From an uncultured Pirellulales bacterium (GTDB lineage: Bacteria; Planctomycetota; Phycisphaerae; Sedimentisphaerales; Anaerobacaceae): a DNA stretch of 58,264 nt. The notes under the pieces were generated by a model. It was not told the DNA's origin. It did not search any database and saw only the letters and a list, made by a program, of their open reading frames with translations. The position numbers were made by a program, and so were the translations under genes. Where the stretch lies: NCBI GenBank assembly GCA_964476475.1, contig CAYZAT010000001.1:1-58264 (forward strand), given 5' to 3'. Shown here one piece after another: positions 25,137 to 44,377 of the stretch (position 1 is the first letter of the stretch; each line of letters starts with the position of its first letter).

Positions 25137-25964
25137 TCAGTTTTTCTTGTCGGTCTTTTTCAAGTCGGCGTAGCTGATGAGCTTAATCCCTAATCGGTCA
25201 ATTGCTTTCTTGATCCGTTTGCTGGTGAAAACTTCCGTGACGGCATCACGATCTTCGGCGACGTTCTCATATCCGACGTGACCGATAGCGCCCATCTCGG
25301 CGGTTTCCAGGCCGGGATGTTCGACGAAGAGGTAAGTCCCCGGTTTCAAACCTTCGAGATTTTTGATAAATGTCTCTATGCGATCTTGTGCGGTTTTGGC
25401 TTTCTTATATCCGGGAAACCTTCGCACCTCCCTGCCGGAAGACTGGATGTACAGATTATATTCCTTCGCCAGCTTCTTCCAAAGCGCCTGGACCTTGGGA
25501 TCCCAGCCCGAACAGCCCATGTGACACGTCATATGGGTCAGGTGCGGGACTTTGCGCTTGGCCATTTCAATCTGGGCGCGCATTTCCTTTTCGACGTCTT
25601 CAATTTTCCACTTTGCTTCTCGCAAAGCCGTCCCATTGGGTGCGCCTTTACGTCGCCAGAGTGTGGGATAGAAGTAACCGTCCGCATCCGTTAAACTGGG
25701 CACCCACGTCAACGGACGCCATTTGATGTTTTCCCATTCGCTGGTCAGGGTGACGTGAACGCCGACGTCCAGCCCCGGATTTTCGTTGAGCATTTTAGCC
25801 GCTTCCGGAAACCAGGCGCAGGGCACCATCAGTTCAACGCTTGTCATGACGCCTTCTTTGTAAGATCGGATACACGCCACGTTCGCAGCGTGACACGAGC
25901 CGATATCGTCGCCGCGAACGATCAGGTAAATGCCTTTATCTTCTTGCGCATACGAGGGATTCAC
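25137..25964 (-). CDS. YdjC/ChbG-like carbohydrate deacetylase; the 5' end is apparently frameshifted and the intact gene probably spans 25137-26023
   Basis: The sequence LIVRGDDIGSCHAANVACIRSYKEGVMTSVELMV...GLDVGVHVTLTSEW resembles the YdjC family. The track ORF starts at a GTG, and a 20-codon signal-peptide ORF sits just upstream in another frame (see the finding at 25961-26023). Confidence 0.65.
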   Translation of the reverse strand: MNPSYAQEDKGIYLIVRGDDIGSCHAANVACIRSYKEGVMTSVELMVPCAWFPEAAKMLNENPGLDVGVHVTLTSEWENIKWRPLTWVPSLTDADGYFYPTLWRRKGAPNGTALREAKWKIEDVEKEMRAQIEMAKRKVPHLTHMTCHMGCSGWDPKVQALWKKLAKEYNLYIQSSGREVRRFPGYKKAKTAQDRIETFIKNLEGLKPGTYLFVEHPGLETAEMGAIGHVGYENVAEDRDAVTEVFTSKRIKKAIDRLGIKLISYADLKKTDKKN

Positions 25965-26022
25965 ACGTCCAAAGCAATGACCAGCATAGACAGAACAAGC
26001 AATACAACATGTCGAGCATTCA

Positions 26023-27855: not shown

Positions 27856-27879
27856 CGTTTTTTCTCCATGGAGTTTCTC

Positions 27880-29145
27880 TTATTTCGGTCCGATGCAGAA
27901 AAGATTGTGCTCCGAACGCATGAAAAGTTGTTTGTTCGAAACCGCCGGGCTGGCGCAGCACTTTTCATTCAGTTCGTTCTCGGCAAGGACTTTGAATTCC
28001 GGTCCCGCCTCGATGACCGTGGTTTTGCCTTTCTCCGAGAGGAAATAAATCCTCCCCTCTGCCCAGATAGGCGAAGCGGAGTATTTACTCCCGATCCGCT
28101 CTCTCCACAGAACGTCCCCGGTTGTCGCCTTCAGGCACCTCGCCACGCCGGTATCGTTGACTATAAACAGGTAAGGCTTGAGGTATAGCATGGATGGAAC
28201 CTTCGGCACGTCTTTCCTTGACGTCCATGCCATGTGCGTATCAGTAACATCGCCCTGGCCGCCCGTGCGGACGACTCGAATGGTCGAGTCTCCAAAACCC
28301 GACGCGGTGAAAATCAGACCCTCACCGAGGACGACCGAGGGCACGACGCCTTCGCCCGGACTCGATGCCGTCCAGATTCGCCGGCCGTTCGTCAAATCGA
28401 AACCCTGTATAACATTTCCGGCGGCGCTGATGAGCCGGTCTTTGCCGTTTTCCGTAAGAATCTGAGGTGTGACATGGGCAATACAGGACAGGCCGCGCTT
28501 GCCTTCCCATCGGACCTTGCCGGTGTTTTTATCCAGTGCCACGATCACGGCCTTGTCCCAGGGTTTTTGCCAGCCGAGCTTTTTGTCCGGCCCCGAACTG
28601 CTGCCGTCGAAGGCCACAATTACGAGGTCTTTATAAAGAACGGGCGATACGGCTAATCCATGCTCGCTGAAATGCTCGTGATCCCGGTAGGTCCAGATGA
28701 CGGTTCCGTCCATCGCCACCGCCGCAATGCTCCCGTCGCACGCGATGGCGTACACCATCCGTCCATCCGTCGCCGGCGTGGACGAGGCGTATGAGTTAAA
28801 TTGTTGTTTGTGGCCGGGCTTTTGCCGGAGCACGTGCTTATTCCAAAGAACGGCCCCGGTTGAGCGATCCAGACACAGCAGGCGGAATGAGGTGGCTTTC
28901 TCCGTCGCCGCCGTGACGAAGACACGATTGCCGAACACAATCGGCGACGACCAGCCTTCTCCCGGAATCGGCGTTTTCCAGGCGATATTTGAGGTCGCGC
29001 TCCATTTTAAGGGAACCTCTTTTTCGTGGGATATCCCTTGTCGGCTCGGTCCGCGAAAACACGGCCAGTTCTCAGCATAGGACACGCTCGCCCGGGCGGC
29101 TATGAAAGCTAACAGCCCACATACATAGAGTCTCTTGATTGTCAT
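27880..29145 (-). CDS. Exported PQQ-like (BamB-type) beta-propeller repeat protein
   Basis: The sequence is WPCFRGPSRQGIS...WKTPIPGEGWSSPIVFGNRVFV, with repeated G.V.A.D..TG...W blades. I chose the start at ATG 29145 (MTIKRLYVCGLLAFIAARASV). Confidence 0.8.
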   Translation of the reverse strand: MTIKRLYVCGLLAFIAARASVSYAENWPCFRGPSRQGISHEKEVPLKWSATSNIAWKTPIPGEGWSSPIVFGNRVFVTAATEKATSFRLLCLDRSTGAVLWNKHVLRQKPGHKQQFNSYASSTPATDGRMVYAIACDGSIAAVAMDGTVIWTYRDHEHFSEHGLAVSPVLYKDLVIVAFDGSSSGPDKKLGWQKPWDKAVIVALDKNTGKVRWEGKRGLSCIAHVTPQILTENGKDRLISAAGNVIQGFDLTNGRRIWTASSPGEGVVPSVVLGEGLIFTASGFGDSTIRVVRTGGQGDVTDTHMAWTSRKDVPKVPSMLYLKPYLFIVNDTGVARCLKATTGDVLWRERIGSKYSASPIWAEGRIYFLSEKGKTTVIEAGPEFKVLAENELNEKCCASPAVSNKQLFMRSEHNLFCIGPK

Positions 29146-29609
29146 TTGAAATGGGCACCTCCGAAAGCACAATACGACATTATAAATAGTAAATTCATTG
29201 TTTCCCTTGACAATGTCCTAATAATACGACACCAGATGTTAGCAGCTTTACGCAACGAATGCAATTGTCTATGGTTTTGTTCATGAATGCTTTGAATGAG
29301 CAGCGTTGGGCGCTCGGAGATTGCATCTTATTTTCTTGAATTTCCGAAAAATCGTCGTTAGGATGGATCTTCGATGAGTGTATGAGTGATCCTTGGCATC
29401 AAATAATGGGGTTGAGTTAAACAACTTCCTAAATTGACAGGGGGAAGTCAAACGATATGAACGAATCGCTCGCCAGTCGCCATAGCGGGATCAATATCGG
29501 CTGTGTTCATTGCCACGGCAAACACTGGTTGCAGGCCGGCACTACTAACCGGGACGAAAAAGGCGGCAAGCTGCTCCGAACGAATAGACGAGATTTATAG
29601 GTTTCTCAT

Positions 29610-32600
29610 ATGAAATCTTCACTTTTCGCTGTGTTTTTGATTGTTTCTTCGTCGATCTGCCTCTGTGCAGAGCCGGCTAAGGAATCGGTAACGAGCCCTG
29701 TCGAGCGGCAAGATGCAAACACGGTCGGTGATATCGTTCCAGTTCCCCAAGGTGTTCCTGCTACTAATGGCGCAGCTCAACTCACGCTTGAAGGGCTCCA
29801 GGCAGTCAAGAAGAAAATCGGTGAATCGACGGAATTGAGTGACGACGTCAAAGCGAAAGTCGGTGAAGTCTATGACAAGGCGATAGTCCAGTTAACATCC
29901 GCCAATGATTTTGAATCTAAGAAACAGCAGTACAGTCAGACGCGGGCGGATGTACCGAATACACTGGTCAAAACCAAAGACTTGCTGGCTCAACAAGCGA
30001 CTATCGCACCCCCGGAAGCCGGACCTCAAATTACCCTGGCACAGGCCGAGCAGGCACTGGCCGTTGCACGATTGGCCCTTGAGGAAGCCAGGAAAAACGT
30101 CGCCAATTGGGAAAATGAGCCGAAGCGAAGAGCCGAGCGGAGAACGAAGATACCGGAGGAATCAAACAGTGCCATACAAAGGCTTAGTGAGATCGACGCT
30201 CAGCTTGCCGCTCCGGTGCCCGAGGGGCAGGCGGCCGAATTGATGCAGGCGAACAGGACTTTGTTACTTGCTCAGCAGCGGGCGATAGGAAGTCAGATCG
30301 CCAGCAATACAGAGGAACTGCTGTTTTACGATGCTGCCGTCGGTCTGTTGGCCACTCGAAGGGACCTTGCGGCCCGACAACAGGCTGCGGCGGAGAAGGT
30401 CGTAGAATTCTGGCAGCACAAGGTGAACGACCTGAGACAGAAGGAAGCAGAGGCGGCCAAAAAGGAAGCCATCCGCGCCAAAGAAGAGACAAAGTACCCC
30501 GTGGTCCAGGCCATCGCCGAAAAAAATGCGGAACTGGCGGGTATCCAGGCCGAGCTAACGGCCAAGATTCAAGCTGTCACGAAGTATTCTGAGGTGATCG
30601 ATGGGAACCTCGCGGCCGTTAAGAAAAAGTTCGAAGAGATTCGCTCCAAAGTCGAGACCGCCGGAAAGGTGACCGACGTTTTGGGAATGGTTCTGCTGGC
30701 CCATCGCGACAAGCTACCCAATATCAGCAAAAACCTGCGACGGTTGAAAGGGCGGGCTTCGGAAATTTCATTGGCTCAGTTTAATGCCATGGAGCGCGAT
30801 AGGGAGTGGTCCGATCTGAGCAATCTTACCGACGAGATCGATGGGATCCTCGCTCAACTCGATCCTTCCGTCGGCGAGGCGGAGCGCGAGCTTATCAAAA
30901 AACAGGCTACGGACTACTACGAAAATCAACGTAAAACGTTAAGGGTCATCGCCGACCTTTATGGGAACTACAGCGCGGTGCTGGCGAATCTTGACACCAA
31001 AGAACGCCAATATGTAGAGACGGTACAAGATTATACCGACTTCATCGATGCAAACATTTTTTGGGTTAAAAGTAGTCCGCCATTACGTTTGTCCGATTTT
31101 CGCACGAGCGTTTCGGTTATACGCTGGCTGTTGTCCGGAACCCACTGGCGTGAAGCGGTCGGTTTTTTATGGTCGGACGTCAAGAAAAACATCGCCGTTT
31201 ATCTGGCGGCCTTGTTGGTTGTTCTCTTGTTGATCGCGCTTCATCCGAAAGCACATGGAATTGTCACGGTTCTATCCGAGCAAGTCCGTCAGGTACAGAC
31301 GGATAGTTTTGTCCATACGTTCAAGGTTCTTGCCCTGACGGTTTTTCTGGCGGCGACGTGGCCTGTTGCCCTTTTTCTATTTCAGTGGCGGCTGTCCATC
31401 GCTGCGCCGGATCATGATTTCTCCCAGGCGCTGGCTTCGGGTTTGATGGGATTGGTGCCTGTCGTCTTCATGCTTTGTTTTTTGAGGCACTTTGCCATGC
31501 CCCACGGTCTGGCCCAGGATCACTTGCGGATGCGACAGGAACCGATCTCTTTCTTTCGGCGATTACTCGGCTGGTATTTTGCATTAGCGATTCCGATCAT
31601 TTTCATCGTTCGTGTCATGCACGCTCAACAGACCGACGAACAATGGTATCACTCCGCGGGCCGTTTGTTTTTCATCGTTCACCTTATCGTACTTGCCCTT
31701 CTGCAGCTTGTGTTATTGCGCCCCGCGGGCCCGCTGATGGAGCCGTACCTCCGGCAAAGACAGGGCGGCTGGTTGGAGCGCCTGCGCTATGTCTGGTACC
31801 CGTTGTGTTTTATCCTGCCGGTTGTATTTGCCGTTCTGGCGGGCATCGGTTACTTCTACGCGGCGCGGAATCTGTTTGTGAAGCTGGTGGTTACCATTTT
31901 GCTGATTCTGCTGACGATTTTCGTCCGAGCTTTATTTTTCCGCTGGTTGATGGTGGTCCAGCGACGACTCGCCCTGTTAGAGCGGCAGAAGCGAGAAGCC
32001 GTCGAGCAGGAGATTCAGGAGCAGGGGGAATCTGCCGACACGACCGAGCCGCAACAGAGTAAATCGAGAGACAATGAGGCGACTATTTTTCATCTCTCGC
32101 GGCAAACCCGGCGATTGATCGATGCGGTCACGATGCTCATTCCATTAGGTGGAATCTGGTATGTTTGGAAGGATGTCCTACCGGCTCTGGGGGCTCTGGC
32201 GGGCATTGAACTATGGCGATTGGGCGATGCTCAGGCCGTAACGCTTGGATCGTTGGTAATGGCCCTTATTATCGTTACGCTTACTGTCATCGCGACTCGG
32301 AACGCGCCCGGATTGCTGGAGATCGTTATACTGAGGCGGCTTCCGTTCGACCGTGGCGTGCGTTTCGCCGTCACGACGATTTTCCGCTACACTCTGGCCG
32401 TCATCGGTATTGTGCTGGCGTTCGGGGAAATCGGCATCGGCTGGTCGAAAGTCCAATGGCTCATCGCGGCTATGACCGTCGGACTGGGCTTTGGCTTGCA
32501 GGAAATTTTTGCCAACTTCGTCAGCGGCCTGATTATCCTTTTCGAGCAGCCCATCCGGGTTGATGATGTCGTGACCATCGGCGACGTGACGGGAACCGTC

Positions 32601-33053
32601 ACAAAAATCAGGATACGAGCCACGACGATTCGCCGATGGGACCAGCGAGAGCTTGTCGTTCCGAACAAAGAGTTCATTACCGGACGTCTCATCAACTGGA
32701 CGTTGTCGGACAATATCCTGCGCCGAGAATTTGTTGTAGGTATCGCTTATGGCTCCGATACCGCCAAGGCAGAAGCCGTTCTCTATGAGGTAGCCGGAGC
32801 GCACCCGCTGGTTTTAAAGGATCCGAAGCCTGTGGTGATCTTTAAAAATTTTGGAAATAGCAGCTTGGAGTTCGAGTTGCGCGTGTTTATTTCGGGTATA
32901 GAAAATTATGTTCCCGTTTGGCATGACATCAACTTTGCCATCGATCAGGCTTTCCGGAAGGCTGGTATTGAGATCGCTTTTCCACAGCATGATCTTCATG
33001 TGCGTTCAGTGGATGCAAACATCGCCATGAATCCATATAGGCCGTCTGAGTAG
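29610..33053 (+). CDS. mscK: MscK/KefA-type large mechanosensitive channel (MscS family with a long periplasmic coiled-coil N-terminal domain)
   Basis: The 1147-aa protein has a signal peptide and a ~480-aa Q/A/E/K-rich coiled-coil region, then about 11 TM segments. The MscS core reads GLGFGLQEIFANFVSGLIILFEQPIRVDDVVTIGDVTGTVTKIRIRATTIRRWD. Confidence 0.85.
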   Translation: MKSSLFAVFLIVSSSICLCAEPAKESVTSPVERQDANTVGDIVPVPQGVPATNGAAQLTLEGLQAVKKKIGESTELSDDVKAKVGEVYDKAIVQLTSANDFESKKQQYSQTRADVPNTLVKTKDLLAQQATIAPPEAGPQITLAQAEQALAVARLALEEARKNVANWENEPKRRAERRTKIPEESNSAIQRLSEIDAQLAAPVPEGQAAELMQANRTLLLAQQRAIGSQIASNTEELLFYDAAVGLLATRRDLAARQQAAAEKVVEFWQHKVNDLRQKEAEAAKKEAIRAKEETKYPVVQAIAEKNAELAGIQAELTAKIQAVTKYSEVIDGNLAAVKKKFEEIRSKVETAGKVTDVLGMVLLAHRDKLPNISKNLRRLKGRASEISLAQFNAMERDREWSDLSNLTDEIDGILAQLDPSVGEAERELIKKQATDYYENQRKTLRVIADLYGNYSAVLANLDTKERQYVETVQDYTDFIDANIFWVKSSPPLRLSDFRTSVSVIRWLLSGTHWREAVGFLWSDVKKNIAVYLAALLVVLLLIALHPKAHGIVTVLSEQVRQVQTDSFVHTFKVLALTVFLAATWPVALFLFQWRLSIAAPDHDFSQALASGLMGLVPVVFMLCFLRHFAMPHGLAQDHLRMRQEPISFFRRLLGWYFALAIPIIFIVRVMHAQQTDEQWYHSAGRLFFIVHLIVLALLQLVLLRPAGPLMEPYLRQRQGGWLERLRYVWYPLCFILPVVFAVLAGIGYFYAARNLFVKLVVTILLILLTIFVRALFFRWLMVVQRRLALLERQKREAVEQEIQEQGESADTTEPQQSKSRDNEATIFHLSRQTRRLIDAVTMLIPLGGIWYVWKDVLPALGALAGIELWRLGDAQAVTLGSLVMALIIVTLTVIATRNAPGLLEIVILRRLPFDRGVRFAVTTIFRYTLAVIGIVLAFGEIGIGWSKVQWLIAAMTVGLGFGLQEIFANFVSGLIILFEQPIRVDDVVTIGDVTGTVTKIRIRATTIRRWDQRELVVPNKEFITGRLINWTLSDNILRREFVVGIAYGSDTAKAEAVLYEVAGAHPLVLKDPKPVVIFKNFGNSSLEFELRVFISGIENYVPVWHDINFAIDQAFRKAGIEIAFPQHDLHVRSVDANIAMNPYRPSE

Positions 33054-33151
33054 CTGTTTGTCTCTCTTTCGCAGTTTTTCTAAACAAAGACCATTGTTTT
33101 CCCGTATGTTTGATAGAAAATAATGTCAAAACGTATTAAAGGATCGTAACG

Positions 33152-34690
33152 ATGGAAAAAAGGCGGCATATCAGAGTTTTGCGTTGGCCCGTATTCATCA
33201 TTCTTTTGCTTGTTATTGTGGGCGGGAGCATCGGAGCGCTTTCCCGCTCTCGAAATACATCGAGCGCGAGCGCGGCCGGGTCCCCTTCCCCTTTGCTGAT
33301 TGATGATTTTTCGACCAATCGTTCAACCCCAAAAGCCGGGAAGGGATGGGAATTTGTTTCCGACCGGGTTATGGGGGGCATGTCAGTCGGAAGGATAGAA
33401 TACGGTATGGTGGACGGCCGGTCGTGCCTTCGCTTAGTGGGTTCGGTTCTGTTGGAGAATAACGGAGGCTTTATTCAGGCCCGCGGAACGCTCGGTCCCG
33501 GGGGCAGAAATTTTAATGCTCATGCGTACAAAGGTATCAAGCTGAGTGTCAAGGGCAATCGCCAGACGTACGCCATTCATTTAGGAACGAGAGATACCCG
33601 GCTGCCCTGGCAATTTTACGAGGCGCCCTTTTCAACCGATGAGTCGTGGCAGGAGATTCAGATTCCCTTTGAGACGTTCAAGCCGAATTCGTTGCGAAAG
33701 CCGCTCAATATCAAGGCCCTCACTACGCTTGCGGTCGTGGCGAAAGGAAGGAAATTCGACGCCGATATTCGTGTGGACAACATCGCTTTCTATAAGGACA
33801 CAGCCATGTACAAGAAACTCACCCCGGAAGAGGAACGGGTCATCCTTCATAAAGGCACGGAAAGGCCGTTCACCGGCAGATACGTCAATCATTTTGCAGA
33901 CGGGACGTATACGTGTAAGCAATGCGGTGCAAAGCTTTTCGATTCTTCCAGCAAGTTTCATTCTAACTGCGGCTGGCCGAGCTTCGACGACCAAATCAAA
34001 GGGACCGTGAAAATGCAACCCGACGCCGACGGCGTCCGAACGGAAATTGTCTGTGCCAACTGCGGAGGCCATCTCGGCCATGTATTTAAAGGAGAGCGAC
34101 TGACCTCCAAGAACACGCGCTACTGTGTGAATTCGATTTCGATGGATTTTGTTCCCGAAGGACAAGACCAATCCCCAACCGCAAGCTCTGCTGAATCCGA
34201 GAAGCCCAAACAGGAAAGAGCGATTTTCGCTTCGGGATGTTTCTGGGGAACAGAGTATCATCTGCAAAAAGTTCCCGGCGTGATATCCACGACCGTTGGC
34301 TATACGGGGGGACGGACAAAAAATCCGACCTACAAACAAGTGTGCACGGACAAAACGGGCCACGCCGAAGCGGTTGAAGTGGTCTATGATCCGTCGAAAA
34401 CGAATTACGAGCAGTTGGCCCGTTTATTCTTCGAGACGCACGACTTCACTCAGCTAAATCGCCAGGGACCCGACGTGGGTAAGCAATACCGTTCCGCCGT
34501 ATTCTATCTCGATGAAAAGCAGAAAGACGTTGCCGCCGGACTGATTGCGACCCTGAAGAAGAAGGGATTCGACGTGAAAACCGAACTGACGCCCGCGTCG
34601 AAATTCTGGCCCGCTGAACTCTATCATCAGGATTACTACAAGAAAAACGGAAAAACACCGTATTGCCACATCTATCGGAAGATCTTTTGA
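33152..34690 (+). CDS. Membrane-anchored CIA30-like domain fused to MsrB and MsrA (methionine sulfoxide reductase B/A)
   Basis: The N-terminal TM segment is VLRWPVFIILLLVIVGGSIGAL. The CIA30-like region reads LIDDFS...GWEFVSDRVMGGMS...NGGFIQAR...VDNIAFY. MsrB shows CKQCG...CANCGGHLGHVF...RYCVNS. MsrA shows FASGCFWGTEYH...YHQDYY. Confidence 0.85.
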   Translation: MEKRRHIRVLRWPVFIILLLVIVGGSIGALSRSRNTSSASAAGSPSPLLIDDFSTNRSTPKAGKGWEFVSDRVMGGMSVGRIEYGMVDGRSCLRLVGSVLLENNGGFIQARGTLGPGGRNFNAHAYKGIKLSVKGNRQTYAIHLGTRDTRLPWQFYEAPFSTDESWQEIQIPFETFKPNSLRKPLNIKALTTLAVVAKGRKFDADIRVDNIAFYKDTAMYKKLTPEEERVILHKGTERPFTGRYVNHFADGTYTCKQCGAKLFDSSSKFHSNCGWPSFDDQIKGTVKMQPDADGVRTEIVCANCGGHLGHVFKGERLTSKNTRYCVNSISMDFVPEGQDQSPTASSAESEKPKQERAIFASGCFWGTEYHLQKVPGVISTTVGYTGGRTKNPTYKQVCTDKTGHAEAVEVVYDPSKTNYEQLARLFFETHDFTQLNRQGPDVGKQYRSAVFYLDEKQKDVAAGLIATLKKKGFDVKTELTPASKFWPAELYHQDYYKKNGKTPYCHIYRKIF

Positions 34691-34776
34691 ATTTGATTTT
34701 GGATGCTCGATATTCGACGGCTGATAATGACGAGAATTTGAAGTAGCATTTCTTGCCTCAAAATCCGCTTTTTTTC

Positions 34777-34806
34777 TTGACGCCAACCCGGTTTGTCGAG
34801 TATAAG
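34777..34806 (+). promoter_or_regulatory. Sigma70-type promoter TTGACG-N18-TATAAG for family member D
   Basis: The sequence is tttttttcTTGACGccaacccggtttgtcgagTATAAGtag, with an 18-nt spacer and a T7 tract directly upstream of the -35. It lies about 260 nt upstream of ATG 35067. Confidence 0.5.
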
Positions 34807-34903
34807 TAGTATTCAAGGTTCGTTGGATTATCGGACCTCAAGCAGAGGATGTGTATTCAGTTGATGGCTTTGTTTCTCGGAAAAATCGCCCTTATGGGGG
34901 ATT

Positions 34904-34994
34904 GGGATGGGCAGAAAGGAGGTCATGACATGTCGAAATGAATTGGTCCGGGCAGCTACGGATCAAGCACGTCGAAAATGAAGCCGAAAATGAT
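34904..34994 (+). promoter_or_regulatory. Conserved 5' leader block of the family (copy D)
   Basis: The sequence gggatgggcagaaaggaggtcatgacatgtcgaaatgaattggtccgggcagctacggatcaagcacgtcgaaaatgaagccgaaaatga aligns with the A and C copies. Confidence 0.45.
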
Positions 34995-35066
34995 AATCGG
35001 CGGCTTCGGTGCGTGACCGGAGCGAAATTTCCAATCAGTTTTCGGTTAGAAGAAGGAGGCAACACA

Positions 35067-37331
35067 ATGAGAAATCTAAAGTTAGTTTTCGTAGTCGTAT
35101 TGGCATTGTGCACGATGGCTATGGCGTCAGACATAGCATTCTATGTCGGAGCGCCTAACATCGATGGCTGGTATGATGTGGATACAATGAATGCGGACGC
35201 TGAAACCATCATTGTCGAATCGGGACATCTTTTCGGCGATGTCCAGAAGTTCAACGACGATCAGTTTGATGACTTTGGTGCCTGGGTCGATGAGCGGACG
35301 GATGACGGTAAAATGGACATTATCTGGCTTAATGGATGCGTGCCCAGTGTTCTCTATCCTTTCCCAAACCTGGAACCGGATGGCTCACGTGCTGAAGCAT
35401 GGCTCGATGGTGGGAATATGTTCATCAACGTCGGCGACTGGTTTGCATACTGCTCGTATGAAGGTGGACCTCGACAGCCTGATAACGGCCCAAGTGGTGC
35501 AGCGAACGTCCTTGACCTTTCTTCGGGTATTATCGTATCCGCTGATAATACGACCATGACCGTGACACCAACAGGACAGGAATATCTCCCCAGTCTCGGT
35601 GACTCCGTCATAACGTATCGACCCGTTGTTCTCACTGCGGTTGTCGCCCCCTGGGAAGTTGCTGCGATATTCGCCTCTCCAGGCGGCTCGGATGATCCGG
35701 CCTTAGAACAACAAGCCGATCCCGTGGTTATTCATAACACGGAGACGGATGGTTACGTTGCTTTTGTCAACCAGTCTGCAGGTAGCGGCCCTCCCGGCTG
35801 GCTCGACGATCGAGGTTTGACCTGTGCCGAATTTATCAACAACTGGGTCAACAGTGAGATCGGATTAGGCAGGGGTAATCCGATTGCCCGCAGCCCGGAT
35901 CCCAAAGATGGCGCTCTCCATGAGGATACGTGGGTTACGTTGTCGTGGAAAGCGGGCGCTTTTGCCGTTTCGCACGATGTATATTTAGGTGATGATCAAG
36001 AGGTCGTCGGCAATACCACTCCGGACTCTGACGTATTCCAGGGCAACCAGGCAGCAACGTTTATCGTGGCCGGTTTCCCGGGATTCCCTTACCCGGAGGG
36101 TCTGGTGCCGGGGACGACATACTACTGGCGCATCGACGAGGTTAATGAGGCGGATCCGAACAGTCCGTGGAAGGGTGATGTCTGGAGCTTCTCCATTCCG
36201 CCCAAGACGGCGTACAATCCCGATCCTTCCGATGGATCTCAGATTGCCGACGCGAATGATCCCACGCTGAGCTGGACGTCAGGCTACGGTGCCAAATTGC
36301 ATACTGTGTATTTTGGCAACGATTATGATGAAATAAACAACGCCACCGGCGGCATGATGAGCGGTGTTGCACTCTACCGTCCCGGCCAACTCGACCATGA
36401 GAAGGTTTTCTACTGGCGGGTGGATGAGTTTGATGCGGTCGAGACGCACAAAGGCGATGTCTGGGGCTTTTCGACGCCGGGCGCCGTGGGCGCTCCGCAG
36501 CCGGCCTATGGTGCCACGGATGTGGCGATGAATGCCACGCTGACCTGGACGGCTGCCACGAACGCCGCCTCGCACCAGCTTTACCTTGGGACGGACAAAG
36601 AGGCCGTGCGTGCCGCCGGTGCCGGTTCCCCCGAAGACAAAGGCTCCATGGCTCCGGGCGCTGAGAGTTACGATCCCGGTTTGCTTGAAGCGGGCACGAC
36701 TTATTACTGGCGCGTGGACGCAGTCGATGCTCAGGGCAATACATCAAAAGGTCTCGTTTGGATCTTCACGACGGGAGCTTTCCTCGTTGTGGACGACTTC
36801 GAGAGCTATACCGATGACGATGCGGCCGGCGAAGCCATCTGGCAACACTGGATCGACGGCTTCGGCGTGGCCGACAACGGCGCGCAGGTCGGTTATCTGG
36901 TTCCCCCGTATTGCGAGCAAACAATCGTTCATGGCGGTGCTCAGTCGATGCCGCTCTTGTACGTCAACGAAGCCGGTGTAACGAATTCAGAGGGATCGTT
37001 GACGTTAACAGCGCCGCGTGACTGGACAGAAGGCGGTGTTGCTGAATTGTCACTTTGGTTCCGAGGGAGTTCGGACAATGCGCTCGATCCCTTGTACGTG
37101 TCTGTGGCCAACAGCGCCGGCGCCCCAGCAGTAGTGGCGAACGATGATGCCGAAGCAGCCGCGATCCGTAGCTGGACTCAGTGGCGCATCCCGTTACAGA
37201 CTTTGGCGGATCAAGGCATTAGCCTGGGTAACGTGGACAAGATCGCGATTGGCCTGGGCAGCAAAGGCGGTGCCGCAGTCGGTGGTTTGGGCACAATGTA
37301 TATTGATGACATCCGACTGTATCAACCTTGA
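35067..37331 (+). CDS. Exported family member D: unclassified ~270-aa head / 3x repeat / C-terminal IDDIRLY module
   Basis: AGGAGG lies 8 nt upstream of ATG 35067, whereas the track's 34938 start lies inside the conserved leader. The signal peptide is MRNLKLVFVVVLALCTMAMA. Repeats and C-terminal module match the paralogues and the protein ends MYIDDIRLYQP. Confidence 0.85.
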   Translation: MRNLKLVFVVVLALCTMAMASDIAFYVGAPNIDGWYDVDTMNADAETIIVESGHLFGDVQKFNDDQFDDFGAWVDERTDDGKMDIIWLNGCVPSVLYPFPNLEPDGSRAEAWLDGGNMFINVGDWFAYCSYEGGPRQPDNGPSGAANVLDLSSGIIVSADNTTMTVTPTGQEYLPSLGDSVITYRPVVLTAVVAPWEVAAIFASPGGSDDPALEQQADPVVIHNTETDGYVAFVNQSAGSGPPGWLDDRGLTCAEFINNWVNSEIGLGRGNPIARSPDPKDGALHEDTWVTLSWKAGAFAVSHDVYLGDDQEVVGNTTPDSDVFQGNQAATFIVAGFPGFPYPEGLVPGTTYYWRIDEVNEADPNSPWKGDVWSFSIPPKTAYNPDPSDGSQIADANDPTLSWTSGYGAKLHTVYFGNDYDEINNATGGMMSGVALYRPGQLDHEKVFYWRVDEFDAVETHKGDVWGFSTPGAVGAPQPAYGATDVAMNATLTWTAATNAASHQLYLGTDKEAVRAAGAGSPEDKGSMAPGAESYDPGLLEAGTTYYWRVDAVDAQGNTSKGLVWIFTTGAFLVVDDFESYTDDDAAGEAIWQHWIDGFGVADNGAQVGYLVPPYCEQTIVHGGAQSMPLLYVNEAGVTNSEGSLTLTAPRDWTEGGVAELSLWFRGSSDNALDPLYVSVANSAGAPAVVANDDAEAAAIRSWTQWRIPLQTLADQGISLGNVDKIAIGLGSKGGAAVGGLGTMYIDDIRLYQP

Positions 37332-37389
37332 GCAACTGCGGATAAGTTGGCATTGCGTAGATTAGAATAAGGTTGAGTTGATATCAAAT

Positions 37390-37425
37390 CGGGGCCTATG
37401 CCGGTGCATTACGGTGTAGGCCCCG
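37390..37425 (+). terminator. Stem-loop after member D (putative terminator)
   Basis: cggggccta(37390-37398)...taggccccg(37417-37425) forms a 9-bp GC-rich stem. The sequence is related to the hairpin at 44350-44377. No clear U tract follows. Confidence 0.45.
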
Positions 37426-37533
37426 GTCATTGTCGGTCAGCAAGACAGAAAAGCGCAGAGCGTCTATTTGTCTTCCGTTGCGATTTCCCCATGTTCTATC
37501 GATGGGATATACTGCGTCATCGGGGGATTTTCC

Positions 37534-37563
37534 TTGACGGGCCATTCGTCGATTTGGTATAAG
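37534..37563 (+). promoter_or_regulatory. Sigma70-type promoter TTGACG-N18-(tgg)TATAAG for the E-F-G operon
   Basis: The sequence is attttccTTGACGggccattcgtcgatttggTATAAGtaa, with an 18-nt spacer. It lies about 200 nt upstream of ATG 37771. Confidence 0.5.
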
Positions 37564-37770
37564 TAACGTGAGTGGAGCGTGTGCCTTTTGGGAAGGCATC
37601 TGATGCCTTCAAAATACGCAATGGGTGCAGTTCCAGTGGTTTGTCGAATTGAGGAGGAGGCATTATGCATTATACAAGGCACAGAATAAGAGGGGGACTC
37701 CGTTCTTTGGCATAAGAAGATTCTTACATTTCAGTTAACAACGAGTCTGTTTTTGAAAAGGAGGATTACT

Positions 37771-39765
37771 ATGTTTCAAAAATTGGTCTATTTGTTTTCT
37801 TTTATTTTCATGCTGAGCCTGGTCGGTGTTAGCGGCGGCGCTGAAGGCCTGAAAGGCGAGTATTATCATGCGAGTATCTCAGCGGAGGCCTGGCAGAATC
37901 TGGTGTTCACTCGCATTGATCCGACGGTGAACTTCGATTGGAGTACGAACTCGCCGGATCCGTCCATGAATGACAATGGTTTCATGGTGCGGTGGACGGG
38001 CACGATTGAAGTGCCGAATTCTGAGACCTACACGTTCACCCTCCGGACAGACGACGGCGCCAAGTTATGGTTGAATAATGAACTCATTGCCGACACCTGG
38101 ACCGAGGCCAAGAAATGGCAGGCCACGCGTGAGGGTGTTATCGAAGACAGCGGCAATTTTGTCTTAACAGGCGGGCAGCCATACGAGATTATTCTGGAGT
38201 ACTATGAGAGAAGTAATAATGCCGTATGTGAGCTATCCTGGTCCACTTCGACATTGGCCCGGGAAGCCATCCCGAGCCGGTATCTGTCGCCGGAGAGGCC
38301 GTACCCGCGTGATCCGGACCCGTCGGATGGCGCCATGGTTCGAGATACATGGGTGAGCCTTGGCTGGAGGCCCGGAGATTTTGCGGTCTCGCACGATGTT
38401 TACTTCGGTGAAAATTTGGATGAGGTACGTGAGGGGGGCGGTGACACGTTCTACGGCAACCAGACATCGACAGATTTTGTTGTGGGATTTCCTGGATTTC
38501 CGTATCCGGACGGTCTTGTTCCGGGCACAACCTACTACTGGCGAATCGTCGAGGTCAATGATTTGCACCCCAAAAGCCCGTGGAGTGAAGGCCCGGTCTG
38601 GAGTTTTTCGATTGCTCCTAAGACCGCCTTTAGTCCCAACCCGGCCGATGGTGCCGAATTTGTGGGTCCGGACGATGTGGAACTGAACTGGGAAGCCGGC
38701 TTGGGAGGTGTGCTGCACACGGTGTATTTCGGGGATAGTTTTGATGGTGTCAACAATGCCGCCGGGGGATTCCCACAGGGACCGAAGATCTATAAGCCCG
38801 GCTCGCTTGAACGAGAGAAGATTTACTATTGGCGCGTCGATGAGTTCGACGCCCTCGCGACATACAAAGGCGATATCTGGAGCTTTACGACCCCGGGCGC
38901 CGTTGGAAGTCCCAAACCCTCAAATAAATCCACCGATGTGGGAATGAATGCGATTCTAAGCTGGACGGCATCGGATTCTGCGGCATCGCACCACGTTTAC
39001 TTTGGCACCGAACAAGACGCGGTCCGGAATGCTGATACCGGTTCGCCTCAATACAAAGGCTCCAAGGCGTTGGGTGCTGAAATCCTTGATCCCGGACTCC
39101 TCGAGCCGGACGCCGTTTATTATTGGCGCGTGGATGACGTCGATGCCCAGGGCAATGTATCAACAGGTCCTCTCTGGAGCTTTGCGACGGGCACTTTCCT
39201 GCTCGTGGATGATTTCGAAGGCTATACCGATGACGATACAAACGGCGAGGCGATTTGGCAAACGTGGATCGACGGCTTCGGCGTTGCGGATAACGGCGCC
39301 CAGGTCGGCTATTTGGTCCCTCCGTATTGTGAGCAACAAATCGTGCATGGAGGTTTGCAGTCCGTGCCGCTCACGTATGTCAACGAGGCCGGCGTATCGA
39401 ATTCAGAGGCGACATTGACGTTAACGGCGCTGCGGGACTGGACGGTCTCAGGCGTGGGTGAATTGTCGCTCTGGACCCGGGGCGATATGACCAATGCCGC
39501 CGAGCCATGGTATGTGGCGATCTCCAATACCAACGGAGCGCCGGTGGTTTGGGCTCTTGATGATCCGCGTGCCGCACAAAACATCGCGTGGAGACAGTGG
39601 CGCATTGCTCTACAGTCTTTTGCCGATCAGGGGATTAATCTAACGAATGTGGACAAGATCGCGATTGGCCTGGGTAACAAAGGCGGCGCTGCGACCGGCG
39701 GATCAGGAACGGTGTACATTGACGACATCCGGCTGTATCGAGCGGGCGAAGCGGCAACGCCGTAA
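37771..39765 (+). CDS. Exported family member E: PA14 head / 3x repeat / C-terminal IDDIRLY module
   Basis: RBS is aaggaggattact before ATG 37771. The PA14-like region reads GLKGEYYHA...VNFDW...GFMVRWTGTIEVPNSETYTFTLRTDDGAKLWLNNELI. Three repeats and the C-terminal module follow, ending VYIDDIRLYRAGEAATP. Confidence 0.85.
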   Translation: MFQKLVYLFSFIFMLSLVGVSGGAEGLKGEYYHASISAEAWQNLVFTRIDPTVNFDWSTNSPDPSMNDNGFMVRWTGTIEVPNSETYTFTLRTDDGAKLWLNNELIADTWTEAKKWQATREGVIEDSGNFVLTGGQPYEIILEYYERSNNAVCELSWSTSTLAREAIPSRYLSPERPYPRDPDPSDGAMVRDTWVSLGWRPGDFAVSHDVYFGENLDEVREGGGDTFYGNQTSTDFVVGFPGFPYPDGLVPGTTYYWRIVEVNDLHPKSPWSEGPVWSFSIAPKTAFSPNPADGAEFVGPDDVELNWEAGLGGVLHTVYFGDSFDGVNNAAGGFPQGPKIYKPGSLEREKIYYWRVDEFDALATYKGDIWSFTTPGAVGSPKPSNKSTDVGMNAILSWTASDSAASHHVYFGTEQDAVRNADTGSPQYKGSKALGAEILDPGLLEPDAVYYWRVDDVDAQGNVSTGPLWSFATGTFLLVDDFEGYTDDDTNGEAIWQTWIDGFGVADNGAQVGYLVPPYCEQQIVHGGLQSVPLTYVNEAGVSNSEATLTLTALRDWTVSGVGELSLWTRGDMTNAAEPWYVAISNTNGAPVVWALDDPRAAQNIAWRQWRIALQSFADQGINLTNVDKIAIGLGNKGGAATGGSGTVYIDDIRLYRAGEAATP

Positions 39766-39867
39766 GTCATGCATTTGCTGAGCTTGCAGCTAACCTGACG
39801 CTTATTCGGGACCTGTGCGGGCGCATCTGCATAGGTTCCGTTTCTAATTCAAATAGGGAGAAAACAA

Positions 39868-42054
39868 ATGACGCGTATAATGCACATTTTCTTCAGTTGT
39901 CTTATCGTTAGTTTGATGTTTGCGGGGCCAGGCGAGGCTCAGATTAGTTCCGATGCCATTCTTGGGATATGGCTGCTTGACGAGGGAGTAGGGGATATAG
40001 CTGAGGATGCCTCCGGAAACGGTCATAATGGCACACTCGTGAACGCACCGGAATGGATTACCGGTCAATTGGGCACGGCTCTGTCTTTCGTGTCGGGTAG
40101 TTATGTGGATTGCGGCAATGATCCGGTCCTGAATGTCGGTGTTTTCTCGGTTTCATTTTGGTGCAATATCGCCAACTTACAAACCTGGCTCCACATGGTT
40201 TCGAGAGGTCGGCACTTTGGCAGCGGCAATCCCGGTGGTAACAACTGGGGCGTTATGATGTGCGACGGGAGAGAGACCATCCGTTTTGAAGTGTTTAATG
40301 ACACCAGTTGGACGAGGGTTGATGCCGATACCACTCTCGGTGAATGGCACCACGTCGTTGCCACATTTGACGTGAGTGACGGTAAGCAGCAGCTTTACCA
40401 TGACGGCGAATTGGCTGCAGACGGAACGGGAGGGATTATGCTTCAAGAGGATAAGCCGTTGTTTATCGGCGCTCAATCTCGCGATACGGGACCCGGAGCG
40501 TCCTTCGAAGGGAGTATTGATGAGGTCGGCTATTTTAACGCTGTACTGACGCCTGACGATATTGAAACGATCATGGATGCGGGTCTGTCGGCCATCACCG
40601 GCGGCCTTCCCACGGCCCGGAGCCCGCAACCGGCGGATGGTGCGATACACCCGGACACGTGGGTGACTCTTTCCTGGAAGGCGGGGGATTTTGCTGTTTC
40701 GCACGATGTGTATTTAGGCGATAATTTCAACGATGTGGAACAAGCCACACGGGATTCGGATCTATTCCGCAGCAACCAGGTGACGGACTTTTATATCGCC
40801 GGGTTCCCGGGTTTCGCCTATCCGGACGGCCTTGTGCCGGGAACAATGTATTACTGGCGGATCGATGAAGTGAATGACGCCGATCCGGACAGTCCGTGGA
40901 AAGGCGATGTCTGGAGTTTCCTGGTTCCGCCCAAGACGGCGTACAATCCGAATCCGGCTGACGGTGCCCAGATTGCGGGTACGACGGTGACTTTGATCTG
41001 GACACCGGGCTTCGGTGCGAAAATGCACACGGTTTATTTCGGCGATGATTATAACGAGGTCGAAAATGCCGTTGTGGGCGTCCCGACCGGAAGCGTAACG
41101 CACAATCCCGGTCAGCTTGAAGAAGAGAAGGTCTATTATTGGCGGATCGATGAATTCGACGGTTTCGAGACGTATAAAGGGGGTGTCTGGACCTTTACGA
41201 CACCGGGAGCGGTTGGAAATCCGCTACCGGCCAATGGGGCGACCGATGTGGGAATGGCGCCGATCTTAAGCTGGACGGCGGCAAATACCGCCGCTTCGCA
41301 CGAAGTGTATTTCGGGCGGGACAAAGACGCCGTACGTAACGCGGATACCGGCTCACCCGAGTACAAAGGCCCCAAGACGCTCGGCGATGAAAGTTTCGAT
41401 ACCGGATTGCTTGAACTGGGGGCGACGTACTATTGGCGTGTGGACGAAGTGTATAATGGAAATCCGGTCAGAGGCCCTGTCTGGAGCTTTACGGTAGGTG
41501 ATTTCCTTCTGGTCGAAGATTTCGAGAGCTATACCGACAATGATGCGGATGGTGAAGCGATCTGGCAAACGTGGATCGACGGCTTCGGCGTCGCCAATAA
41601 CGGCGCGCAGGTCGGCTACCTGCTTCCACCATACGCAGAACAAACGATCGTTCATAGCGGCGATCAGTCCATGCCGTTGATCTATTTGAACGAGGCCGCT
41701 GTCGCCAACTCAGAAGCGGCGAGGACGTTGACGGTGCGGGACTGGACCGTGGCGGGTGTTGAGGAATTATCGCTTTGGACCCGGGGGGATTCGGCCAATG
41801 CCGCCGAACCGTTGTATGTGGCGATCTCCAACTCGGCCGGCTCGCCGGGGATCGTGGCCCACGAGGATTTAACTGTGGCGACGAATGCGGCTTGGAGACA
41901 GTGGCGGATTTCACTGCAAACCTTTGCCGATCAGGGCATCAACCTGGGGAACGTCGATAAGATCGCCATCGGTTTAGGTAATCAATCCGGTATGACATCA
42001 GCCGGTGGTACGGGTACGATGTATATCGATGATATCCGGTTGTATCGACCTTAA
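39868..42054 (+). CDS. Exported family member F: LamG (type 2) head / 3x repeat / C-terminal IDDIRLY module
   Basis: After a signal peptide the LamG_3-like head reads LGIWLLDEGVGDIAEDASGNGHNGTL...GSIDEVGYFNAVLTPDDIETIM. The protein ends MYIDDIRLYRP. Only ~100 nt separate it from E with no promoter motif, so it is probably co-transcribed. Confidence 0.9.
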   Translation: MTRIMHIFFSCLIVSLMFAGPGEAQISSDAILGIWLLDEGVGDIAEDASGNGHNGTLVNAPEWITGQLGTALSFVSGSYVDCGNDPVLNVGVFSVSFWCNIANLQTWLHMVSRGRHFGSGNPGGNNWGVMMCDGRETIRFEVFNDTSWTRVDADTTLGEWHHVVATFDVSDGKQQLYHDGELAADGTGGIMLQEDKPLFIGAQSRDTGPGASFEGSIDEVGYFNAVLTPDDIETIMDAGLSAITGGLPTARSPQPADGAIHPDTWVTLSWKAGDFAVSHDVYLGDNFNDVEQATRDSDLFRSNQVTDFYIAGFPGFAYPDGLVPGTMYYWRIDEVNDADPDSPWKGDVWSFLVPPKTAYNPNPADGAQIAGTTVTLIWTPGFGAKMHTVYFGDDYNEVENAVVGVPTGSVTHNPGQLEEEKVYYWRIDEFDGFETYKGGVWTFTTPGAVGNPLPANGATDVGMAPILSWTAANTAASHEVYFGRDKDAVRNADTGSPEYKGPKTLGDESFDTGLLELGATYYWRVDEVYNGNPVRGPVWSFTVGDFLLVEDFESYTDNDADGEAIWQTWIDGFGVANNGAQVGYLLPPYAEQTIVHSGDQSMPLIYLNEAAVANSEAARTLTVRDWTVAGVEELSLWTRGDSANAAEPLYVAISNSAGSPGIVAHEDLTVATNAAWRQWRISLQTFADQGINLGNVDKIAIGLGNQSGMTSAGGTGTMYIDDIRLYRP

Positions 42055-42129
42055 TAAGCTACGAATAAGGAAAGACCGACAGTTTAAAATCGGGGTCTAT
42101 GAACTTCCAGTTTGAAAAAGGAGAAGAAA

Positions 42130-44319: not shown

Positions 44320-44349
44320 ACGAGTAAGGAAGGATCAATCGTTGAAAAT

Positions 44350-44377
44350 CGGGGCCTATGCTGGTGCATAGGCCCCG
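44350..44377. terminator. Perfect 12-bp stem / 4-nt loop hairpin between convergent genes (bidirectional terminator candidate)
   Basis: The hairpin is cggggcctatgc-tggt-gcataggccccg. It lies between the stop of member G (44319) and the stop of the GH2 gene (44403). Confidence 0.6.

Follow-up and report, generated by a model that had tools for sequence, protein, structure and literature searches.

A family-specific promoter and a conserved 5′ leader with a strong upstream Shine-Dalgarno sequence precede LamG/PA14 paralogues in a Sedimentisphaerales bacterium

Stabilizer leaders that combine a 5′ stem-loop with ribosome binding are known from aprE of Bacillus subtilis and ompA of Escherichia coli. 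The erm leaders and tnaC represent another type, in which a leader peptide or upstream open reading frame (uORF) controls attenuation, and start-stop sites have been seen by ribosome profiling. In tisB and the gene for the MS2 coat protein, standby sites consist of unstructured sequence and assist a start that is sequestered. Closest to the present case are leaders in which ribosomes bound far upstream of the gene are thought to protect the mRNA. In cry3Aa of Bacillus thuringiensis, as summarized in PMC12970973 (citing Agaisse & Lereclus 1994, 1996), a Shine-Dalgarno (SD)-like sequence lies at about −125, and 30S binding to it is proposed to block ribonuclease (RNase) access and thereby protect the processed mRNA. 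Ribosomes at the strong SD of B. subtilis hbs mRNA block RNase J1, according to the account in PMC5737220, and a polypurine stabilizer is mentioned for mycobacterial katG in PMC2358910. This analysis concerns a 58,264-nucleotide (nt) stretch of DNA, hereafter the window, from an uncultured Pirellulales bacterium (assembly GCA_964476475.1, contig CAYZAT010000001.1, positions 1 to 58,264; GTDB lineage Planctomycetota, Phycisphaerae, Sedimentisphaerales, Anaerobacaceae), in which a distinctive promoter and an untranslated leader of ~250 nt with a strong SD far upstream of the start codon precede genes for secreted LamG/PA14 paralogues.

Promoters and leaders of the paralogous family

Across both strands of the window, the pattern TTGAC-N16-19-TATAA[AGT] has four matches in total, each located 5′ of a LamG/PA14 paralogue, and these are the four TTGACG-N18-TATAA(G/A) promoters that a preliminary description, made from the DNA letters alone, had placed at the same positions. 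The TGn extension, which that description gave to three of the four, is present in the promoters of A, C, and E and absent from that of D. The downstream genes encode secreted proteins with an N-terminal LamG (Laminin_G_3) or PA14 domain. Promoters (scored in bits by a weight matrix) and genes are as follows.

1040-1011, minus strand: promoter of gene A, TTGACG-N18-TATAAG with TGn, 34.8 bits
6582-6553, minus strand: promoter of the C-B unit, TTGACG-N18-TATAAA with TGn, 42.3 bits, the top score in the window
34765-34806, plus strand: promoter of gene D, consisting of a T-rich stretch, the −35 TTGACG at 34777-34782, an 18-nt spacer, and the −10 TATAAG at 34801-34806
37534-37563, plus strand: promoter of the E-F-G unit, TTGACG-N18-TATAAG with TGn, 38.3 bits
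From start position 602 until it runs off the window, minus strand: gene A, behind the promoter at 1040-1011
6306-4168, minus strand: gene C, first gene of the C-B unit
4048-1319, minus strand: gene B, second gene of the C-B unit
35067-37331, plus strand: gene D, with its real SD AAGGAGG at 35053-35059, start codon at 35067-35069, and signal peptide directly after
37771-39765, plus strand: gene E, first gene of the E-F-G unit
39868-42054, plus strand: gene F, of the E-F-G unit
42112-44319, plus strand: gene G, of the E-F-G unit

The weight matrix was trained solely on promoters from other loci and ranked the four window promoters first to fourth (42, 38, 35, and 21 bits), with the next site at 11 bits, which indicates that the promoter is family specific within the window. 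The D promoter, which is without the TGn extension, took rank 4 (21.3 bits). A generic sigma-70 scan of positions 25000-44900 returned 18 promoter-like sites, no excess over the chance expectation of 14.0 ± 3.6, and left the family promoters unlisted because their −10 element is without T at position 6, a base that is near-universal in sigma-70 promoters. The arrangement TTGACG-N18-TATAA(G/A), from which the transcript start is predicted, is kept in position and sequence in ~17 loci, most of them with TGn. The −10 reads TATAA(A/G) at 34801-34806 (plus strand), 6558-6553 (minus), 1016-1011 (minus), and 37558-37563 (plus), as well as in ~13 other loci, and a GATTTT(C/N)C block abutting the −35 on its 5′ side is also conserved. 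Either an unusual sigma factor or a housekeeping consensus peculiar to the lineage may lie behind the odd −10 and the upstream block.

A, C, and D align across the whole promoter and leader, ~230 nt (nhmmer E = 1e-59 to 1e-64 with a profile of the three), and E has the promoter alone in common with them in the same comparison. When 320 nt of sequence upstream of each open reading frame (ORF) in related loci were compared, the promoter motif preceded 26 of 88 family ORFs versus 4 of 90 other ORFs. The strong upstream SD (super-SD) preceded 21/88 versus 3/90, and the hairpin P4 likewise 21/88 versus 3/90; two of the 90 other ORFs are truncated family genes. Both the promoter motif and the leader are genuine and specific to the family. 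The elements of the D leader and the leader cores of C and A are listed below; R1 is a covariance model comprising the hairpins P2, P3, and P4.

34816-34838, plus strand: 5′-proximal hairpin H1, stem AGGUUCG/CGGACCU with the conserved loop GAUUAUCGG (GAUUAUAGG), a few nt past the predicted transcript start
34913-34923, plus strand: super-SD of D, AGAAAGGAGGU, 144-154 nt 5′ of the start codon at 35067
34930-34941, plus strand: mini-ORF of D, AUG UCG AAA UGA (MSK*), 7 nt past GGAGG
34943-34966, plus strand: hairpin P2, UUGGUCCG/CGGAUCAA (clade form UUGAUCCG/CGGAUCAA), from RNAalifold
34973-35001, plus strand: P3 region, a tentative AAUGA...UCAUU-type hairpin (CGAAAAUGA/UCAUUCUCG) enclosing AGCCGAAA(A)U, the CCGAAAAT of the preliminary description
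35003-35023, plus strand: hairpin P4 of D, GCUUCGG-UGCGUGA-CCGGAGC, 43 nt before the start codon
6341-6458, minus strand: leader core of C, with super-SD AAGGAGGT at 6448-6441, AUA in place of AUG, P2, P3, and a weakened P4; R1 hit of 94.3 bits
726-845, minus strand: leader core of A, with super-SD at 835-828, MP* at 821-813, P2, P3, and a degenerate P4; R1 hit of 91.6 bits

The super-SD consensus is AGGAAGGAGGU, of which D carries the variant AGAAAGGAGGU, and the D upstream SD AGAAAGGAGGT (34913-34923) is the longest match in the window to the anti-SD complement. Complementarity was scored against the near-universal 3′ tail of 16S rRNA, taken as canonical, with which the GGAGG-type real SDs agree. 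The window's clade comprises 22 leaders, and the octamer AAGGAGGT is invariant in all 21 that were aligned for conservation. An AUG stands exactly 7 nt past GGAGG in 14 of the 22; 13 of these mini-ORFs encode MP, MPE, MPQ, MSK, or MSC followed by a stop (mostly UGA), and the other is longer. The eight leaders without AUG have AUA (six), AUC (one), or a degenerate copy (one). In the clade the mini-ORF stop falls 1-3 nt ahead of the 5′ strand of P2, the 3′ strand of which holds GGATCAAG. The invariant single-stranded strings of the clade block are GGAUCAAG and AAUGAAGCCGAAAU (in the block also GGAUCAAG/GCCGAAAU). Hairpin H1 appears in single-sequence folds of D, A, related loci L110, L048, and L020, and others, and by eye its stems vary in step (GGUCC/GGACC, GGCCC/GGGCC, and a closing G-C replaced by U-A). 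A less conserved stretch separates H1 from the super-SD. Conserved strings were also observed in the 5′ third of the leader, at 34840-34860 and its equivalents (GAGGAUGUGUAUU) and at 6490-6475 on the minus strand (UUUUCACGCUCUU).

Most details of the preliminary description of these leaders stand. A, C, and D all contain its strings GGATCAAG and CCGAAA(A)T; the first string that it gave is found in the corresponding region of all three, with A reading GGACAGGAAGGAGGT (GGACAGG) instead of GGCAGG. The mini-ORFs are as it gave them: MP* at 821-813 (minus strand) in A, MSK* at 34930-34941 in D, and 16 codons at 37665-37715 in E, with AUA in C. Its spacing of 65-160 nt between upstream SD and start codon covers D (144-154 nt) and is too short for A (~230 nt), and its leader length of 200-400 nt is exceeded in A. 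The A leader is ~405 nt long because a repeat element of ~110 nt is inserted at 965-850. This palindromic repeat of ~100 nt (AAAATGCAAAATTAAGGAAGTCATC-hairpin-GATTCCGCAATTTTGATTTT) has three copies, all on the minus strand, at 965-850 in the A leader, 1325-1225 on the 5′ side of the A promoter, and 48650-48545 inside the 5′ end of the listed ORF 48359-52690. Its central hairpin varies in step among the copies (GTCGCGATGCGAC, ATCGCAAAGCGAT, CGCCTTCGGCG), a weaker match occurs in L173, and the repeat looks like a small mobile or repetitive extragenic palindromic (REP)-like element.

An in-frame ATG at 34938, overlapping the mini-ORF stop, opens the listed ORF 34938-37331 and would turn the D leader into an N-terminal coding extension. 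This candidate was rejected: the frame is closed in orthologues, L118 reading ATG AAC TGA at that ATG, and the true start of D is therefore 35067.

Conservation of the leader and hairpin P4

The leader recurs in ~25 loci of other metagenome-assembled genomes (MAGs) and metagenomes. When one genome per species was scanned with a pattern, the block turned up in Sedimentisphaerales MAGs only (twice in L020, and in L039 and L048), and ~100 further pattern matches in unrelated phyla failed the nhmmer filter and were discarded. Scanning of metagenomes added leaders L110-L113, L117, L118, L120, L123, and L124, and a protein-based scan with D returned 79 loci and added leaders L137, L169, L178, L187, and L188. 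The protein family is very large and paralogous, with a conserved C-terminal part of ~480 amino acids and dozens of copies per MAG. Leader subtypes track protein subfamilies (the D-type MKNL..., the C-type M(C/F/Y)R..., and the MFKK and MKK..AIST types), which indicates that the duplications predate the split of these species. Identities at four-fold synonymous sites and in the leader compare as follows.

D versus C (paralogues): four-fold synonymous identity 0.42, leader identity 0.65
D versus its orthologue in L110: four-fold synonymous identity 0.56, leader identity 0.77
C versus its orthologue in L111: four-fold synonymous identity 0.54, leader identity 0.77
D versus L118: leader identity 0.82

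The leader evolves more slowly than synonymous sites and is under purifying selection, in agreement with the earlier proposal of a family-specific promoter joined to a cis-acting leader RNA. Orthologous leaders are closer to each other than paralogous ones, which argues against homogenization by gene conversion.

P4 has the consensus GCUUYGG-UGYGUGR-CCRRAGC and lies 33-44 nt before the real start, with 35-45 nt between them in the leaders of the window's clade. About 92% of its alignment cells are paired (92.7% in the model-fitted alignment); pairs 103-119 and 105-117 change on both sides, and 104-118 varies among U-G, U-A, and C-G. A genome collection was scanned with the P4 pattern alone, so that leaders were chosen without reference to the SD, and at least 119 loci were found, nearly all in Planctomycetota MAGs (labelled Sedimentisphaerales, Phycisphaerae, “Pirellulales”, or Planctomycetota) and with many copies per genome. 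An SD and ATG follow within 120 nt of P4 in 104 of the 124 matches listed, nearly all 33-44 nt past P4. The ORFs after P4 typically open with a stereotyped signal peptide, M[C/S]KKLIYLVSFVLVLGL, and 37 of 44 long ORFs downstream of P4 contain the family C-terminal domain. The Y-R pair is the sole stem position that the pattern leaves free on both sides; among 97 distinct sequences it is TA in 72, CG in 14, TG in 8, and CA in 3, a result reached by 0/1000 shuffles. P4 therefore consists of base pairs kept by compensatory change on the sense strand. P4 also has many G-U pairs, which would become A-C mismatches in the opposite strand, and this assigns the structure to the mRNA sense strand. With at least 104 copies and covarying pairs, P4 is a candidate new RNA motif. 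The window also holds a copy apart from the full leader, in the intergenic region of the C-B unit.

4047-4122, minus strand: P4-only module, operon internal, 5′ of gene B (nhmmer E = 1.3e-5)

RNAalifold on core and full-length leaders returned P2, P4, and a 3-base-pair helix only; the 5′ third gave no consensus fold, and neither long-range nor alternative pairing emerged. In the MAFFT alignment, 81% of the cells are paired versus 24-42% when the partners are slid, and the column shuffle was not significant overall because most columns barely vary. In the alignment fitted to R1, 10 pairs change on both sides, a number reached by 0/500 shuffles, with the caveat that fitting to the model shaped this alignment. 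Clear signals came from this alignment and from the large P4 set alone. P2 is paired in 84% of the cells, with changes that are mostly wobble (G-U to A-U), one two-sided change from C-G to U-A in the MAFFT alignment, and three varying pairs in the model-fitted alignment. P3 is paired in 70%, with two-sided changes at three pairs (MAFFT) or five pairs (model fitted); in D it shows the local pairing GCCGA/UCGGC. The P3 hairpin, seen by eye, is regarded as tentative and clade specific. RNAalifold and single-sequence folds contained neither a terminator nor an alternative pairing that was conserved, and neither SD was consistently sequestered; the single-sequence folds disagreed on the partners of both SDs. 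Other structural candidates were set aside. Intrinsic terminators were dismissed since no U-tract follows the leader hairpins. In some subtypes only, the P4 loop can pair with the start region, or the 3′ strand of P2, once freed, with CUUGA close to the real SD, and these pairings were dropped. The resemblance of GGAUCA in P2 to the 16S tail was regarded as coincidental.

Comparison with more distant relatives separates the widespread parts of the leader from those of one clade. R1 also finds weaker, distant leaders (L127, L143, L180, L191, L193, L196, L126, L128, L135, L156, L175, L177, and L189). Most of these keep the strong upstream SD and most keep P4 (exceptions are L128 and L135), and by eye the 90-nt block is absent from them. 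In several distant leaders the SD is lengthened to AGAAAGGAGGTG(A/G)T and no well-spaced start codon follows; by eye, the lengthened form has 12 nt of exact complementarity to the 16S 3′ tail, or 13-14 nt with a G-U pair. Among leaders chosen through P4, 40 of 103 contain an anti-SD complement of at least 8 nt (usually AGGAAGGAGGT) located 68-200 nt 5′ of P4. An ATG lies 4-10 nt past GGAGG in 3 of these 40, and any NTG in 8 of 40, no more than the back-of-envelope chance value of ~0.3. The AUG-bearing GUCAUGCCG of the window's clade corresponds to GYCAARUCG in relatives, and other clades have other hairpins in the region between SD and P4. The widespread family modules are therefore the promoter, the mostly start-less strong SD, and P4, and the 90-nt block and mini-ORF belong to one clade. 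The preliminary description had taken the 90-nt block for the core of the element, a role that does not survive this comparison; the block is a clade-specific spacer, and P4 (35003-35023) was not mentioned there. The E leader, which it had treated as a weaker version of the block, is instead a separate subtype found in other genomes too.

37651-37715, plus strand: E-type leader element, GAGGAGGAGG followed by AUG at 37665 and a 16-codon uORF, with P4 deleted

This third subtype consists of AGAGGAGGAG, ~7 nt, AUG, and a uORF of 1-48 codons and occurs also in L126, L156, L175, and L189. No conserved peptide was found among the E-type uORFs, that of L126 being just AUG UGA. A family gene with leader is also seen on contigs in MAGs named for unrelated phyla, namely L126 at 5751-5890 (Candidatus Aegiribacteria), L195 (Gammaproteobacteria), and L211 (Eubacteriales), and many other family contigs are named “Pirellulales”. 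Such labels are probably binning or naming errors rather than signs of horizontal transfer.

Possible roles of the upstream SD

The mechanism we tentatively favor, and consider quite possible on the strength of the comparisons below, is that of a modular cis-acting leader acting as a ribosome-binding stabilizer or loader, similar to the stabilizing SD (STAB-SD) elements of the cry3A type. A sigma-70-like family promoter (GATTTTCC-TTGACG-N18-(TGn)TATAAR) would start a leader of ~250 nt that begins with the 5′-proximal hairpin H1. This would be followed by the invariant, very strong SD AGGAAGGAGGU, mostly with no start codon after it in relatives, by a variable structured spacer (P2 and P3 in the window's clade), and by P4 standing 33-44 nt ahead of the real start. 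A 30S subunit would bind the upstream SD; in the window's clade, a 70S ribosome would do so instead, initiating on the two- or three-codon mini-ORF, which mostly ends in Pro-UGA. Proline before a stop codon is a slow termination context. The bound ribosome and the hairpins would shield the mRNA from 5′-end-dependent decay and may raise loading at the real start, and the outcome would be high and coordinated output of the family, on the STAB-SD or 5′-stabilizer principle.

An STAB-SD-type stabilizer is favored because the extended SD is invariant, lies >100 nt upstream, and is usually start-less. As in cry3A, a purine tract complementary to the 16S 3′ end (~9 nt, GAAAGGAGG, in cry3A; here AAGGAGGT, with AGAAAGGAGGT in D and AGAAAGGAGGTG in relatives) is placed deep in the 5′ untranslated region (UTR), at about −125 in cry3A and at −136 to −155 in the main type here. 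The main protein is not started at this site, which is start-less in C and in most relatives (37/40 P4-chosen leaders). Both leaders stand 5′ of a gene for an exported or accumulated protein, with high expression documented for Cry3A and assumed here, and for both, ribosome binding is proposed to block 5′-end-dependent decay. The systems differ in that ours is found in another phylum, is without sequence homology to the known elements, has longer complementarity (8-12 nt exact, or by eye 13-14 nt with G-U), and forms part of a modular leader with a dedicated promoter and P4 that dozens of paralogues in each genome use. In A, D, and 12 further members of the clade, an AUG 7 nt past GGAGG is another difference from cry3A. 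The aprE and ompA leaders are similar in the hairpin at the very 5′ end (H1), the second hairpin just 5′ of the ribosome-binding site, and the secreted or surface protein encoded downstream, whereas they are shorter and serve single genes, without the extra decoy SD and family-wide use seen here. In L117 and L110, the SD block stands operon-internally, directly behind a terminator-like hairpin; such operon-internal blocks, H1, and the position of P4 at the edge of the ribosome-binding site fit the stabilizer theme.

Several points weigh against the STAB-SD-like interpretation. The upstream SD is present in only about a quarter of family genes and 39% of P4-bearing leaders, and this minority share means that it is not obligatory. 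The strings GGAUCAAG and AAUGAAGCCGAAAU and the conserved P4 loop are unexplained by a simple roadblock. A, D, and E carry a well-spaced AUG after the SD; these AUGs would be true initiation sites, unlike those of a classical STAB-SD. Accessibility predicted for the upstream SD was 0.37, versus 0.42 in shuffled contexts, without a significant difference (p = 0.15). The SD complementarity and the transcript start are predictions from sequence, with the 16S tail assumed to be canonical. Finally, STAB-SDs are established in Firmicutes with RNase J, and a survey from 2011 lists RNase E/G-type enzymes in Planctomycetes (PMC3071783).

The upstream SD might also capture 30S subunits and pass them to the real start ~140 nt downstream, raising translation rather than stability. 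The preliminary description had suggested such a standby site; the ribosome-binding role that it gave the upstream SD fits the data, and our preferred form of it is the stabilizer or loader. A standby or loading site would explain a strong SD that is invariant, mostly start-less, and at a fairly constant distance, and also the fixed distance at which P4 borders the real ribosome-binding site on its 5′ side. As in tisB and the MS2 coat gene, a 30S subunit could be kept at the upstream site, apart from the real start. Structured start sites are generally regarded as the ones that standby serves, whereas the real start here is not consistently sequestered: the unpaired probability of the real SD is 0.07-0.84, with 0.30 versus 0.35 in shuffled contexts, which is not a significant difference. 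The site is also a canonical extended SD instead of an unstructured tract, and 110-150 nt, interrupted by several hairpins, is a long distance for sliding. A standby or loading site is unlikely, and the standby and stabilizer readings are mutually compatible. An RNA-binding protein, a small RNA, or uORF translation could instead act on the single-stranded strings, the purine tract, and the P4 loop to switch the whole family together. Conservation beyond the needs of pairing (GGAUCAAG, AAUGAAGCCGAAAU, the P4 loop UGYGUGR, and the H1 loop) and an element common to dozens of paralogues per genome speak for such a regulatory leader, and a ribosome at the mini-ORF stop, 1-3 nt before the P2 5′ strand, would open P2; by eye, CUCUUUCC of the C-type leaders has two possible partners, GGAAAGGG and the upstream SD. 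In A, D, and 14/22 clade members, the strong SD, AUG at the ideal 7 nt, and two to three codons do resemble erm, tnaC, and start-stop sites. Unlike in those systems, however, the peptide is not conserved and the AUG is often replaced. The leader-peptide switch suggested in the preliminary description is unlikely in view of AUA or AUC in 7/22 clade leaders (with the AUG lost in one more) and of the absence of the AUG from 37/40 P4-chosen leaders. The folds contain no conserved alternative pairing, terminator, or SD-sequestering helix, the mini-ORF and P2/P3 block are missing from most relatives, and the window contains no regulator gene linked to the family. We regard regulation of this kind as improbable.

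The leader lacks the defining properties of leader-peptide attenuators and riboswitches. A metabolite-binding riboswitch of an undescribed class would be consistent with a long conserved leader with hairpins and conserved loops, and the leader is like the leader and riboswitch families of Rfam in being a conserved structured 5′ UTR element, none of which it matched. Rfam 15 at gathering thresholds gave no match for the whole window, in line with the preliminary description, which recognized no known riboswitch class; relaxed searches gave two chance-level hits for 34700-35100 (E up to 10; E = 5.5 and 9.1, far below gathering) and no hits for L118, L123, and L113 (E up to 1). The structure, however, amounts to three independent simple hairpins without a supported multihelix junction or pseudoknot, the middle of the leader is freely replaced between clades, no expression platform is present, and the genes encode secreted binding proteins rather than ligand-linked metabolism or transport, so that a riboswitch is extremely unlikely. 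The similarity could also be passive, the product of duplication or recombination, in which case the DNA would at most serve recombination that shuffles N-terminal modules. In favor of this are the high degree of duplication in the family, the apparent derivation of the leader from a duplicated gene start, and mosaics in which a truncated start is fused to P4 (L185, L282, and L310) or the block comes right after a terminator (L117 and L110). Nevertheless, the leader is better conserved than synonymous sites in both orthologues and paralogues, orthologous leaders are closer than paralogous ones, with no homogenization, P4 covaries with G-U pairs that mismatch at the DNA level, and the 8-mer AAGGAGGT never varies, with four-fold sites close to saturation. 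The preliminary description had proposed a cis-regulatory leader and named passive duplication as what would refute it; the ~25 outside loci, the slow evolution relative to synonymous sites, and some covariation (in R1 and the P4 set) speak against duplication alone, and passive similarity is very unlikely.

The stabilizer or loader interpretation is the one retained here, in which ribosomes would bind at the upstream SD and, as we infer, stabilize or load the mRNA. A more speculative extension of it, which is quite unlikely, is that super-SD and P4 together form a posttranscriptional “address label” born from a reused SD-AUG-signal-peptide duplicate. Read by a trans-acting factor or by prebound ribosomes, this label would be a family-wide RNA regulon signal, more than a stabilizer, coordinating the translation of dozens of secreted paralogues per genome and possibly coupling it to export.

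Origin of the leader, its surroundings, and implications

The leader itself resembles the start of the genes that it precedes. A profile of the real start and first 26 codons hits leaders L282, L240, and L216 (E = 3e-13 to 9e-5) and gives 22 hits at E < 10, versus 4 in shuffled leaders. In L185 (1-120), L282 (3214-3330), and L310, a truncated gene start (GAAGGAGGAnTATTATG TGT ...; MCKKLICLVDTS...) reads straight into P4, and these intermediate forms, together with L240, sit 5′ of a second, intact family gene. In our own comparison, P4 (GTTTTGGTGTGTGGCC) agrees at 13/16 positions with the coding consensus of the signal-peptide hydrophobic core (GTTTTGGTGCTGGGCC), and the E-type SD-AUG GGAGGAGTTATTATG is nearly identical to the real start GGAGGATTATTATG. 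These similarities lend moderate support to the view that the leader may be a degenerate tandem duplicate of the SD-AUG-signal-peptide segment of the gene itself, kept for a new role.

The products of D, C, B, E, F, and G share an architecture of signal peptide, variable LamG/PA14 domain, three repeats of ~100 amino acids (P.P.DGA...SH.VY.G......YYWR.DE....G.VWSF), and a C-terminal domain ending in YIDDIRLY. Pfam gave weak FN3-like hits, PDB matches cover the LamG part alone (4QVS, an S-layer domain protein), and searches of the conserved C-terminal part against PDB, NCBIfam, and Pfam were uninformative. A terminator-like hairpin (CGGGGCCTATGC...GCATAGGCCCCG) follows family genes at 44350-44377, 39807-39840, ~37385-37425, and ~1190-1150 (minus strand) and is also located 3′ of family genes in L110, L117, and L137. 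With this conserved hairpin, each gene unit has family-specific elements at its 5′ and 3′ ends. Neighboring genes in the window encode a sulfatase, GH2, an apiosidase-like protein, DUF1501/DUF1800, MscS, and MsrAB, a neighborhood typical of polysaccharide-degrading Planctomycetota; none of the window genes is a regulator gene linked to the family.

A limited literature search returned nothing on promoters, transcript starts, 5′ UTR elements, or control of mRNA decay in Planctomycetota, nor on Sedimentisphaerales with LamG, and Sedimentisphaerales-type organisms are represented here by MAGs only. For these organisms, the locus provides a well-defined candidate promoter consensus, a candidate RNA motif (P4), and a natural series of start-less extended SDs 5′ of a huge secreted family. 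Conversion of a duplicated translation start and signal-peptide segment into a UTR element would illustrate how leaders of this kind come about. Should ribosomes bound at the decoy site indeed stabilize or load these mRNAs, the STAB-SD principle would extend far beyond the Firmicutes, and the leader could be adapted as a portable part for high expression in this phylum, which is difficult to engineer.

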